Source: Phycisphaerales bacterium
GTDB lineage: Bacteria; Planctomycetota; Phycisphaerae; Phycisphaerales; UBA1924
Length of the DNA: 64,000 nt
Reading direction: 5' to 3'
Assembly (NCBI GenBank): GCA_027083355.1
Contig: JALWOY010000069.1
Span: 7,893 to 71,892 of the forward strand
Under the pieces are notes generated by a model. It made no database searches. It had not been told where the DNA came from and was given only the letters and a program-made list of their open reading frames with translations. Position numbers and translations under genes: made by a program. Below are positions 60,757 to 64,000 of the stretch, piece by piece; the first letter of the stretch is position 1, and the number at the start of each line of letters is the position of its first letter.

Positions 60757-61776
60757 TCACCCACTCGGGTGCTCCGCTGAGTGTACCGATTCGTCAGGAC
60801 GGGCCTGTGCGAGGGTCTGCCCCGTACGCACCATGACACGCCTGCCGTCGAGCACGAAGTAAACCAATTCTCCGGAAGCGTCGTCGAGCGTCGCGCCCAG
60901 CAGCGATTCACCCCGGCGGAGCGTCTTCATTTCGCCAGTGTCTGTGCGCGCGAGCATGACCTCCACGACCCGCCCATCCTCATGCAGAGACTCCACCACA
61001 CCGGTCACACGCCACTTCGCATACGGCGGTGGTGGCGGCGAGGCGGGGACGACCGCCACCGGGGGCGGCACCGGCTGGGGTTCGGCGGGCGGCGGCGCAA
61101 GATGGAACGGGTCCCGTTCGACGAGGCTCGCCACCCGTTTCGAGGCCCCGGGATCGGGGCTTTGCAACACCGGAACAGGATCGTCCGGCTTCACCAGATC
61201 CGGGGCGAACAACGTCGAGAGGTCCACTTTCAGCGCGAACACCTTCCGGTCCTTGCCCCTCGGCGAGATCGTGAACCCCTCGACCCGGTGAATCCAGGGC
61301 TGACCCCGCACCGCGGCCAGTGCCCGCAGGGTCTGCTCGAACGTGCCGACACCCTGCAGACGCGCATGGATCACGTTGAAGTCGTTCTGCGACGACAAGA
61401 CCCGGCGGAGCGTGCGGTTGACACCCGATCCACGACGCCGGGCCGGGTTTTCCACCGGGGCCGGGCGGCCGTGCGAGACGACGACTTCCCCCAGCCCTTC
61501 CCGTTCGGCGAGGGCGCTGAGCAGTGTCCGCAGCCGATGCTCGACGATGTCGGCGTCCCGCCCGAGCATGGTCGAGCCGAGCCCCCGGAGGGCTTTGCGG
61601 TCCGCCCGCAGCCCCTCGGATGCGGCTTTGAACCCCTTGATCCGTCGGGTCAGATCCGCGGCTTCCTTCTTCATCGCCTCGTGCTCGTGGAGATAGAACG
61701 CGCCGGTGAGAGACCACCCGCCCCAGACCACCCCCACCGCGGCGAGGGCCGAGATGATGATCGTTTTTTTCTTCAT
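60757..61776 (-). CDS. bitopic assembly protein, GspM/PilO-like N-terminal part plus PilP/GspC-HR-like C-terminal beta domain
   Basis: ATG 61776 overlaps the upstream stop (ATGA). MKKKTIIISALAAVGVVWGGWSL is a TM segment, followed by a coiled-coil segment and an alpha/beta region. Then comes a Pro-rich linker (PPPAEPQPVPPPVAVVPASPPPPP) and a C-terminal small beta domain (WRVTGVV....EVMLARTDTGEMKTLRRGESLLGATL). The assignment rests on architecture only. Confidence 0.5.
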   Translation of the reverse strand: MKKKTIIISALAAVGVVWGGWSLTGAFYLHEHEAMKKEAADLTRRIKGFKAASEGLRADRKALRGLGSTMLGRDADIVEHRLRTLLSALAEREGLGEVVVSHGRPAPVENPARRRGSGVNRTLRRVLSSQNDFNVIHARLQGVGTFEQTLRALAAVRGQPWIHRVEGFTISPRGKDRKVFALKVDLSTLFAPDLVKPDDPVPVLQSPDPGASKRVASLVERDPFHLAPPPAEPQPVPPPVAVVPASPPPPPYAKWRVTGVVESLHEDGRVVEVMLARTDTGEMKTLRRGESLLGATLDDASGELVYFVLDGRRVMVRTGQTLAQARPDESVHSAEHPSG

Positions 61777-63302
61777 CACGGCGTCCCCTCCCCGGTACCG
61801 GTGTCCGAGGGGCTGGTTTCGGGCGAGCCGGACGCGGCCGGGGCGTCGGTCGTGATCTGGAACGCGAACCGGTCCTCGACCTCGGGCCCCTGGCTCGTGA
61901 CGGTGTAGACCCCCGAATCCAGCAGCCGTTGCCTGAAACGTTCGGCCTCGGCCCTGTGCCGGACGCGACCGGCGAGCGAGATGGCGAGCGTCGATTCGGC
62001 CGTCCACGCCGACGGGTCGTTGAGCCGCCCCCCTTCTTTGAACACGGCACGGTGCGTGATCTCGACGGCGAGCTTGGAAAGGACCGCCTCATTCGGGGGA
62101 GGCATCTCTGCGACGACGTGATCGAGATGATCGAACCAGTCGATCGAGCGATCGGTCCACGCGCGGATGTGCCCGAGCCGGGCGCCGGCGAGTTGGGACT
62201 GGATGTACCTGTCGCGTGCCTTGTCGTGATCCTCGCGGAGCACCGCCAGCGCGGCCCGTTCATCCGCGAGGCGGTTCTGCGCAACCAGGTAGCCCGCCCC
62301 GATGAGCACGATCAGCCCGAGGAGGGACGCGAGGACCGCCTGACGCAGCCCGGCGCGTGTATCCGGGGGTCTGGTCGGGTTGGCGAAATCGAGCACGGGG
62401 ACCCGCAGTGGCTTGCACAGCGGGAGCCCCGCGAGCGGGATGGCCGGCGTCAGCACGAGCGGATCGATCTCCCCGTCGGCGTCGAGCAACACGTCGGGTG
62501 TGAACACCTCCTCGGGCAATTCCAGACGTTCGGACGCCGCCCGGGCGACGATGCCCGCGAGAGGCTCGGCCCCCAGGACCACCAGCCGCTCGACTTCGCG
62601 GCCGTCGGGCGAGACGCGGTAACTGACCCAGGTGCGTGCGGCCTCCACCGCGACGCGCTCGGCGTAGTGCTCGAGTGCCCGTTGGTCGGTCGAGAGCGGC
62701 AGCACGGCGTCGATCGATCGCGAAAAGACGAGCCGACCCGATTCGATGACCAGCAGTTCGAGCGACCCGAGACCGGGGGCGATGACGAGGGCCGAGCGTG
62801 CGTCGTGGTCGGCCTTGCTGAGGATCGCCCGCACACCCGCGCTGCGGAGCCGGATGCCGTCGAGTTTCAGGCCCGCCGCTTTCGAGAGCGTGCGTCGCCA
62901 GACAACCCTTTCGACGGGCATCGCCGCCGCGGTGATCGGGCCGTTGTCGTCGTCCCCGGCGTCGTAATCGATCACGTTCTCGGCGGAGGTGGGGCTCGCC
63001 TGACGGGACATCTGGAGGTGGATCATCTCGTGCCGCTCGGCCCGATCGAGGACACCGGCCGGTTGTTCGATCCGCTTGATGAACACCTCGCCGCGGGAAA
63101 CGGAGAAGATCGCCGACTTGGCGGTGATGCCGTTCTCGTCGAGCACACCGCGGAGCCACCGGCCGACATGCTCGGCGTCACGCTCATCGCCTTCGACGGC
63201 GGCGTGCACGGCGCGGCGCAGACGGACGGTGTTGTTCCGCCCGAGATCGACCTCGACCGCGAGGAGATGGCCCGCCTCGATATCGAATATGAGGGTGCTC
63301 AC
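61776..63302 (-). CDS. PilM-PilN fusion (GspL-like) inner-membrane assembly protein
   Basis: GTG 63302 overlaps the upstream TGA (GTGA). VSTLIFDIEAGHLLAVEV... is an actin/PilM-like cytoplasmic domain of about 310 aa. It is followed by the TM segment LRQAVLASLLGLIVLIGAGYLVA, a coiled coil, and a periplasmic PilN/GspL-like alpha/beta domain. Confidence 0.6.
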   Translation of the reverse strand: MSTLIFDIEAGHLLAVEVDLGRNNTVRLRRAVHAAVEGDERDAEHVGRWLRGVLDENGITAKSAIFSVSRGEVFIKRIEQPAGVLDRAERHEMIHLQMSRQASPTSAENVIDYDAGDDDNGPITAAAMPVERVVWRRTLSKAAGLKLDGIRLRSAGVRAILSKADHDARSALVIAPGLGSLELLVIESGRLVFSRSIDAVLPLSTDQRALEHYAERVAVEAARTWVSYRVSPDGREVERLVVLGAEPLAGIVARAASERLELPEEVFTPDVLLDADGEIDPLVLTPAIPLAGLPLCKPLRVPVLDFANPTRPPDTRAGLRQAVLASLLGLIVLIGAGYLVAQNRLADERAALAVLREDHDKARDRYIQSQLAGARLGHIRAWTDRSIDWFDHLDHVVAEMPPPNEAVLSKLAVEITHRAVFKEGGRLNDPSAWTAESTLAISLAGRVRHRAEAERFRQRLLDSGVYTVTSQGPEVEDRFAFQITTDAPAASGSPETSPSDTGTGEGTP

Positions 63303-64000
63303 GGGGTGCCCTCCCCCCGGCCTGTGCGGGCGGGTTTCCAACGCCCCAACCGGTTATCGACACCCCCCGACGGGGTCGGCGCGGCGATCGGCTCGTCATC
63401 GGCCGGTTGATTCACCGCCGCGGTCCCGGGGGGCGCGGTGATCGGCTCGTCCGGTGCACCCGGGACATCGTCGAAGAACGAGTTGGTCAGATCATCGAGC
63501 GTCATCGCCGCGTCGTCGCCGGTCTCGGGCATCGGCCCGCCGGTGTCGTCCAATGTACCATCGCCGGTCGATCCGGGGCGTGGTTCCGGCCCTTCGTCGA
63601 GTGCATCGCTGAACGCGGGGAGTGCGCGGACCGCCCTCGCCGCTTCGAGGGCCGTCCGCTCGCGGAGATACGCCAGCCGGACCCTCGGCCCGGCCGCGTC
63701 GAGCACCGCCTCGAACTCGACGAACGGCCCCGTCTCGGTCGGGGTGTCCGGTTCGATGATGTCGCCGAACTCATCGGCCATGGGCAGGGTCTCTCCGGTG
63801 TCCGCCGAGTCGTCGGGGGATTCGAGTGTGACCCGCAGCACGACGCGCCACTGGAGGCAACGCGTGACGGCGACATCGACAAGCGACGCGAACGCCTCGA
63901 CGTCGATCAGTCCCTCGTCGAGCGGCCAGGTGACGCTGCGCATGGCGTCGGCGTCGAGCCGTTCTCGGGCCGAGACCATCGCGGCGGCGCTCGAATCATC
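63299..64000 (-). CDS. acidic hypothetical protein, C-terminal part (frame stays open to the right edge)
   Basis: Same strand as the PilMN-like gene and stop-start overlapped with it. Asp/Glu/Pro-rich C-terminal half. No family recognised. Confidence 0.4.
   Translation of the reverse strand, partial: DDSSAAAMVSARERLDADAMRSVTWPLDEGLIDVEAFASLVDVAVTRCLQWRVVLRVTLESPDDSADTGETLPMADEFGDIIEPDTPTETGPFVEFEAVLDAAGPRVRLAYLRERTALEAARAVRALPAFSDALDEGPEPRPGSTGDGTLDDTGGPMPETGDDAAMTLDDLTNSFFDDVPGAPDEPITAPPGTAAVNQPADDEPIAAPTPSGGVDNRLGRWKPARTGRGEGTP

Follow-up and report, generated by a model that had tools for sequence, protein, structure and literature searches.

The locus considered here raises the question of which machine is built around a giant secretin of 4647 aa. 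In the 64,000-nt stretch of a Phycisphaerales contig that was analyzed (the window), the secretin gene is preceded on the same, minus strand by genes for a 508-aa and a 339-aa protein, which resemble the alignment proteins of type II secretion systems (T2SS) and type IVa pili (T4aP). We consider it about 85% probable that positions 60757–64000 are the distal part of a complete T2SS operon with the order gspF-G-H-I-J-K-L-(M::C)-D-lipoprotein, where M::C stands for a single polypeptide with a GspM-like body and a GspC HR-like domain. The locus is a lineage-specific variant of the known T2SS, distinguished by a GspM::GspC(HR) fusion without a second periplasmic (2P) domain, a PilM-like GspL, a secretin gene in last place and, as seen in relatives, a divergently transcribed gspE. 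The literature searched contained no description of such a T2SS variant, and nothing relevant on a giant secretin or a T2SS in Planctomycetota or Phycisphaerae.

The window ends within this operon. An exact-sequence look-up of the 339-aa protein led to a 78.9-kb metagenomic scaffold (L001), which overlaps the window across 13,244 nt with 1 mismatch, window position 64000 being L001 position 6995. Upstream of the window on the same strand, L001 encodes gspF, gspG, gspH, gspI, gspJ and gspK. The platform protein matches TIGR02120 with an E-value of 8.7e-97 and scores 325 bits as GspF versus 244 bits as PilC, while the major pseudopilin reaches 104.5 bits on TIGR01710 and so passes the cutoff of 88.85. 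The GspH-, GspI- and GspJ-like pseudopilins all bear prepilin N-termini, and the GspK-like gene (L001 6098–7696, 532 aa) matches NF037980 (T2SS_GspK) with an E-value of 5.3e-9, its match to T2SSK being weak. Together with the GspD secretin, the GspF platform protein and the GspG major and GspH–K minor pseudopilins all lie in one locus, as in a T2SS. From gspH through the lipoprotein gene, neighboring genes overlap by 1–4 nt or are separated by gaps of ≤33 nt, and they are presumably co-transcribed; promoter and terminator scans of the operon and the operon end gave gene-strand signals no higher than the shuffled expectation. An earlier note on this DNA had held that no platform or pilin was in sight, which is true inside the window only. 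Because gspF and gspG–K adjoin position 64000 on the same contig, the missing platform and pilins are an artefact of the window edge, and the alternative offered in that note, namely that the machinery lies past 64000, is borne out for both.

Within the window, the chain of three minus-strand genes described in the earlier note is real, and the sequence agrees with its open reading frame (ORF) positions, with the GTGA at 63299–63302, which contains the GTG start of the 508-aa ORF, and with the 30-nt gap before the secretin GTG start at 60726. Two corrections are required. The third gene is no short gene of its own but the 3' end of the gene for the 532-aa GspK homologue, and the junction of the 508-aa and 339-aa ORFs at 61774–61778, given previously as ATGA, reads TGATG, a stop/start overlap of 1 nt. 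The GC content at third codon positions is 0.83–0.93 in these genes in a window of 67% GC, the GC content by codon position is typical of coding sequence, and public gene calls on the same contig yield identical 508-aa and 339-aa products. Given these values, the matching calls and the conserved homologues, both ORFs are genuine genes.

The 508-aa protein has a PilM-like sequence combined with the operon position and the architecture of GspL, in which one chain holds an actin-like cytoplasmic domain, a TM segment and a ferredoxin-like periplasmic domain. Its AlphaFold2 (AF2) model, made from an 18-sequence family alignment with a pLDDT of 85.5, consists of an actin-like domain, a long helix that carries the sole transmembrane (TM) segment, and an alpha/beta domain built from the elements H389–398, E406–421, E433–447, H450–462, E467–470 and E478–485, the fold class of this last domain being judged from the order of secondary structure alone. 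In a Foldseek search against the Protein Data Bank (PDB), PilM is matched first (5eou_A, E 4.5e-18, target-normalised TM-score (TMt) 0.67), FtsA next, and then the cytoplasmic domain of EpsL (1yf5, E 2.7e-8, TMt 0.63) and further EpsL/GspL cytoplasmic domains (5tkw, 4pht_X); a second match of the latter kind has an E-value of 1.5e-6, and additional PilM structures are found as 2ych and 3jc8_Ma. The model, the hydropathy profile and these matches agree with the earlier description of the protein as a PilM-like domain, one TM segment and a periplasmic domain in a single chain. At the sequence level, the family profile retrieves PilM chains from the PDB (E 8.8e-8) and all 18 family members match Pfam PilM_2, the scores of the query itself being 19.2 bits for PF11104, against a cutoff of 27, and 34 bits for TIGR01175, against one of 133. 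The gene lies where gspL is expected, after gspK and before a gspM-like gene. Whereas PilM of T4aP is a stand-alone, actin-like, ATP-binding protein of the cytoplasm that binds the N-terminal peptide of PilN, the PilM-like domain here continues in one chain into a TM segment and a periplasmic domain. The published equivalences are PilMN = GspL, PilO = GspM and PilP = the HR domain of GspC, which binds N0 (PMC4471445; PMC3169554); since PilMN corresponds to GspL, a "PilM-N fusion" is an accepted description of GspL (PMC4471445). A family-invariant juxtamembrane motif, D305-x-A307-x-P309...P313-D314, stands before the TM segment. An hhalign comparison of the periplasmic region of this protein with the GspM-like region of its neighbor, which would bear on a PilN/PilO-type paralogy, was not significant (probability 7% and 0.2%).

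The 339-aa protein is, on the basis of its model, best described as GspM::GspC(HR) or, equivalently, PilO::PilP. The AF2 model (26 sequences, pLDDT 77.8) begins with a TM segment that runs into a long helix followed by an alpha/beta domain; its C-terminal part consists of a disordered Pro-rich linker, a six-stranded beta domain (255–317) and a short tail. The N-terminal body, in which the short N-terminus is cytoplasmic and the single TM segment leads through a helix into a periplasmic alpha/beta domain, has the topology of GspM and PilO, where that last domain is ferredoxin-like, and its top Foldseek match is PilO of the Myxococcus xanthus T4aP model (3jc8_Oa, E 7e-3, prob 1.00), with Pseudomonas aeruginosa PilO also found (2rjz_B, prob 0.95, TMt 0.55). 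The C-terminal domain has the fold of the GspC HR domain: it matches the HR domain of enterotoxigenic Escherichia coli GspC from the GspC-GspD complex (3oss_C) with a TMt of 0.77 and a root-mean-square deviation of 2.0 Å over 67 columns, and it further matches PulC HR (6hcg_e, TMt 0.71), LspC (7oio) and PilP (2y4y). Since the model spans several domains, its E-values are modest; the matches nevertheless fall on particular domains and agree with recurrent NCBIfam matches. Weak matches to NF041515 (GspC_delta) occur in 12 of the 26 family members (best E 3.2e-4), and weak matches to NF040576 (GspM_XpsM) in 4 of the 26 (E 0.038, 13.7 bits, cutoff 60). No match to Pfam T2SSM or PilO is found, and a PDB profile search with the family gave chance-level matches only, so that the assignment rests on structure comparison and the weak NCBIfam matches. 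These results uphold the domain layout that had been proposed for this protein from its sequence, in which a TM segment and coiled coil are followed by a Pro-rich linker and then by a beta domain like those of PilP and GspC HR. Two features of GspC are lacking. There is no TM anchor of its own directly before the HR domain, which follows instead the GspM-like body and the linker, and the protein ends ∼20 residues past the beta domain, where canonical GspC continues into a second periplasmic (PDZ or coiled-coil) domain (PMC11981180). Two motifs are invariant or nearly so across the family: R-x-P-F (R-D/x-P-F, residues 221–224), in a short conserved helix just before the Pro-rich linker, and ESVHS (residues 329–333), in the tail after the HR-like domain; both could be docking peptides. 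An 888-aa protein on a JGI contig (P0012), which appears to be a natural triple fusion of L with M::C, was rejected, since its junction is a read-through of the gene overlap and its second TM segment would be wrongly oriented; this fusion is probably a frameshift or gene-calling artefact.

The secretin that these two genes precede carries, besides a Secretin domain at its C-terminus, 47 Secretin_N stretches, and its best score is with TIGR02517 (GspD). Because its N-terminus (residues 62–249) aligns with the GspD N0-N1 of 5wq7 (E 1.5e-9), the usual docking site for an HR domain exists. In related Phycisphaerae loci of sufficient length, the secretin always reaches at least ∼3300 aa, with lengths of 4594–4647 aa in five gene calls. 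If the Secretin_N domains stack as rings, they would form a periplasmic conduit far longer than a normal periplasm. The gene that follows encodes a 175-aa predicted lipoprotein (MNTRVLILPAVLGVLVSASGC...), the signal peptide of which ends in VSASGC. It has no Pfam match and 14 homologous clusters, and its gene comes after the secretin in all three relatives whose sequence runs past the secretin end; the same position is occupied in loci L016 and L028, in the latter between a 4594-aa secretin and pstS, with pstSCAB following. This lipoprotein gene is the conserved last gene of the operon, and its product may serve the giant secretin as a pilotin-like accessory.

The operon order gspFGHIJK-L-(M::C)-D is common to 21 Phycisphaerae species genomes, and in every locus fetched the L and M::C genes lie directly upstream of the secretin ORF, which makes it reasonable to regard them, as had been suggested, as an alignment subcomplex dedicated to the giant secretin. 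A profile search of 1.84 billion representative proteins found 435 clusters of the 339-aa family at E ≤ 1e-3, 225 of them at E ≤ 1e-30. Among the best 150 of the 435, nearly all are 315–375 aa in length and matched end to end, and the M::C fusion is therefore the family norm. All named members of the family and all 21 GTDB species matches are Phycisphaerae; the species scan used family-specific peptide patterns, and the distribution may be wider.

The assembly ATPase, the absence of which had also been stressed, is seen neither beside the secretin in the window nor up to the end of L001. It does appear in relatives, in that a GspE-type ATPase gene stands divergently beside the operon in nine related Phycisphaerae loci, in the arrangement gspE(−) PTPS(−) GSHPx(+) gspF.... 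The complete genome of one relative (CP060234.1), the M::C protein of which is 56% identical to the one described here, encodes a divergent 559-aa ATPase with MshEN and T2SSE domains. On L001, positions 1–386 are non-coding at the place where relatives encode gspE, and one frame reads a '...PLTPALSPLAG...'-like peptide, which we take to be typical of planctomycete intergenic repeats. An assembly break caused by such a repeat may hide gspE at the L001 end; the contig of the closest relative stops even earlier at the gspE side. By analogy with the relatives, GspE is likely to be present in this metagenome-assembled genome. In many Phycisphaerae the divergent gspE is separated from gspF by two unrelated genes, one PTPS/QueD-like and one for a glutathione peroxidase (L001 387–1869; L002 885–2366; others), a synteny that is conserved within this secretion locus. 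A relative's gspE (L009 1000–2676, minus strand) carries an MshEN-type N-terminal motif for binding of cyclic di-GMP (NF053729, E 3.6e-11), and this motif in the relatives' ATPase suggests, at the level of sequence, that the system is under cyclic di-GMP control.

Several observations weigh against assigning the locus to a T2SS. Neither the 508-aa nor the 339-aa protein matches a Pfam or NCBIfam model of GspL, GspM or GspC at a curated cutoff, and none of the 18 family members of the former matches a GspL model (Pfam T2SSL/GspL_C, NCBIfam GspL); by sequence and by structure, its cytoplasmic domain is nearer PilM than GspL. The ATPase of a relative in which it is full length scores 568 bits as GspE (TIGR02533) and nearly as much, 533 bits, as PilB, and the 386 nt that remain on L001 beyond PTPS do not code for a GspE N-terminus. 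Finally, neither the locus nor its flanks contain a prepilin peptidase of the GspO/PilD type, the sole Peptidase_A24 in the window (29260–29838) lying inside the tad locus (19.6–31.7 kb).

The strongest competing explanation takes the locus to build a type IVa or MSHA-like surface pilus, with the two proteins as fused PilM-N and PilO-P of a pilus alignment complex and the genes ordered as in pilMNOPQ or mshIJKL. The (MN)-(OP)-secretin order mirrors pilMNOPQ, the L protein prefers PilM to GspL, the relatives' ATPase has its MshEN N-terminus and the near-equal PilB score, and in published trees some non-proteobacterial "T2SS" cluster with T4aP (PMC6668835). We nevertheless regard a pilus as improbable. 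The major pilin scores above the equivalog cutoff for GspG and is accompanied by a GspK-like minor pseudopilin and a set resembling GspH, GspI and GspJ. GspF is the best-scoring model for the platform protein, as GspD is for the secretin, the N0-N1 of which is also of the GspD type, and a PilT-type retraction ATPase is not seen in any locus examined. A system wired unlike T2SS and type IV pili, which the earlier note had named as a possibility, is hardly credible, whether the secretin and its two alignment proteins are supposed to lack an ATPase, platform and pilins of their own or to borrow those of the tad locus ∼20 kb away: although GspE, GspF and pilins are absent beside the secretin inside the window and GspE is not visible on this contig, the extension of the contig that the note itself had recommended shows a standard gspF-G-H-I-J-K block directly upstream, relatives encode GspE beside it, and the tad locus is equipped with a secretin, an ATPase and a platform of its own. 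The claim of a secretin with alignment proteins but without motor, platform or pilins thus fails, and a false lead is removed.

With the locus taken as a T2SS, the parts suggest how the machine would be arranged. GspL, a protein that in T2SS binds the N1 domain of GspE, would use its PilM-like cytoplasmic domain to tether the GspE ATPase hexamer under GspF. On the periplasmic side, its alpha/beta domain would form a pair with the GspM-like body of the 339-aa protein, and this body would sit with GspL in the inner-membrane platform. The flexible Pro-rich linker of ∼30 residues would let the HR domain reach the base of the giant secretin and dock there on the N0 ring. GspC, GspL and GspM are known to form a complex in which a flexible GspC linker precedes the HR domain (PMC11981180), and the Pro-rich linker would play the part that this linker has in the XpsCLM model. 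Such an arrangement would bring the platform (GspE/F/L/M), together with a pseudopilus of GspG tipped by GspH, I, J and K, into line under the secretin conduit. Protein secretion, which in a T2SS concerns folded periplasmic proteins, would be the presumed output.

Comparison with the canonical GspL-GspM-GspC assembly of T2SS (Vibrio Eps, Klebsiella Pul, Xanthomonas XpsCLM) shows agreement in plan and divergence in detail. As in those systems, the genes follow gspK in a gspF–K operon, L has its actin-like domain linked through one TM segment to an alpha/beta domain in the periplasm, M consists of a TM segment and a helix followed by an alpha/beta domain, and an HR-type beta domain on a flexible linker comes before a secretin with a GspD-like N0 (PMC11981180). 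In contrast to them, the HR domain is on the C-terminus of a GspM-like protein and not on a separate TM-anchored GspC, the PDZ/2P domain after it is absent and replaced by a tail with ESVHS, the cytoplasmic part of L resembles PilM more than it does proteobacterial GspL, gspD stands at the operon end and not after gspC, and gspE, in relatives, is divergent with two unrelated genes between.

The likeness to the PilM-PilN-PilO-PilP proteins and PilQ of T4aP lies in four modules that directly precede the secretin in an identical order, and in the best structural matches, PilM (5eou, 2ych, 3jc8_Ma), PilO (3jc8_Oa, 2rjz) and PilP (2y4y). Unlike in T4aP, two proteins, the M-N and O-P fusions, take the place of four, the module resembling PilP is no lipoprotein, the neighboring pilins are of GspG–K types, and PilT is absent from the loci examined. 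In the mannose-sensitive hemagglutinin (MSHA) pilus system, MshI is a PilM-PilN-type fusion, followed by the PilO-like MshJ, the PilP-like MshK and the secretin MshL, and the ATPase has an MshEN domain, which is also found in GspE of the relatives. The secretin described here, however, is below the MshL cutoff and scores far better as GspD, the O-like and P-like modules are fused, and the pseudopilin set is Gsp-type. Finally, the N-terminal two thirds of the 339-aa model match the PilO-like Amuc_1100 of Akkermansia muciniphila, from the pilus-like cluster Amuc_1098–1102 (6lad_A, E 8.4e-3; 6kny_A, E 2.3e-2). Both proteins come from the PVC superphylum and both are encoded beside a secretin gene, but the match is limited to the PilO-like body at 14–17% identity, the HR-type domain being unmatched.

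These affinities allow a broader proposal, which we put forward tentatively and would not favor at present: that Phycisphaerae possess a distinct, class-wide T2SS subtype fitted to a ∼47-ring secretin, with an alignment complex condensed into two fusions (PilM-N-like and PilO-P-like), the gene order and sequence affinities of T4aP/MSH systems, and a Gsp-type pseudopilin set, platform and secretin, which could have arisen as an intermediate in evolution between T4aP/MSH and T2SS or have been derived independently. If such a subtype exists, a fixed 1:1 stoichiometry of M to C and the loss of 2P would imply substrate recruitment and pseudopilus action unlike those of the proteobacterial model, and the pseudopilus would work along a conduit possibly >100 nm long. 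Irrespective of this proposal, the occurrence of GspM::GspC(HR) as a natural fusion lends support to the model of a 1:1 C-L-M assembly unit put forward for Xanthomonas and indicates that the TM anchor and 2P domain of GspC are dispensable in at least one lineage, while a PilM-like GspL in a pilMNOPQ-like order provides a data point on the T2SS/T4aP relationship outside Proteobacteria. The giant secretin is the unusual object of this locus, and the platform genes matter chiefly as its parts list, one that is now concrete for studies of how a ∼4600-aa secretin is assembled and used.

Table 1. Features of the distal part of the operon and its surroundings, in window positions; residue numbers refer to the protein named.
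Feature	Position	Strand	Basis or remark
GspK-like minor pseudopilin, C-terminal 233 codons of 532 aa	63299–64000	−	cut by window edge; stop overlaps next start (GTGA)
gspL-position gene, 508 aa: PilM-like domain, TM helix, periplasmic alpha/beta domain	61776–63302	−	ORF; public call; PilM_2/TIGR01175 matches; AF2/Foldseek
Actin-like (PilM / cytoplasmic GspL) domain, residues 1 to ∼300 of 508-aa protein	62403–63302	−	secondary structure; Foldseek
Single TM segment, residues 316–343 of 508-aa protein	62274–62357	−	hydropathy
Periplasmic alpha-beta-beta-alpha-beta-beta domain, residues 389–485 of 508-aa protein	61848–62138	−	secondary-structure order; position as PilN or GspL periplasmic domain
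339-aa protein best described as GspM::GspC(HR) fusion (PilO-PilP-like single polypeptide)	60757–61776	−	ORF; public call; AF2/Foldseek; matches to family hidden Markov models (HMMs)
GspM/PilO-like body of 339-aa protein: TM 5–24, long helix to 67, alpha/beta domain 75–190	61207–61764	−	hydropathy; AF2; Foldseek; weak NF040576
Pro-rich low-confidence linker, residues ∼222–250 of 339-aa protein	61027–61113	−	pLDDT <50 at 240–247; variable Pro-rich alignment columns
GspC HR/PilP-like C-terminal beta domain, residues 251–317 of 339-aa protein; ESVHS tail motif after it	60826–61026	−	Foldseek; NF041515
Spacer, 30 nt, with Shine-Dalgarno-like AAGGAG (60730–60735) before secretin start	60727–60756	−	sequence
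Giant GspD-type secretin, 4647 aa: signal peptide, GspD-like N0-N1, 47 Secretin_N, C-terminal secretin domain	46783–60726	−	HMMs; alignment
Predicted lipoprotein, 175 aa, lipobox VSASGC	46259–46786	−	sequence; homologues in relatives; TTG start overlaps secretin stop (TTGA)

Canonical GspH–K are smaller than their homologues in this operon (L001 3881–7696), which have 272 aa (GspH-like), 183 aa (GspI-like), 285 aa (GspJ-like) and 532 aa (GspK-like). The C-terminal tail of the GspK homologue, the part of it that falls inside the window, is long, acidic and rich in Pro, and the protein shows faint HHH_3/ComEA-like matches.

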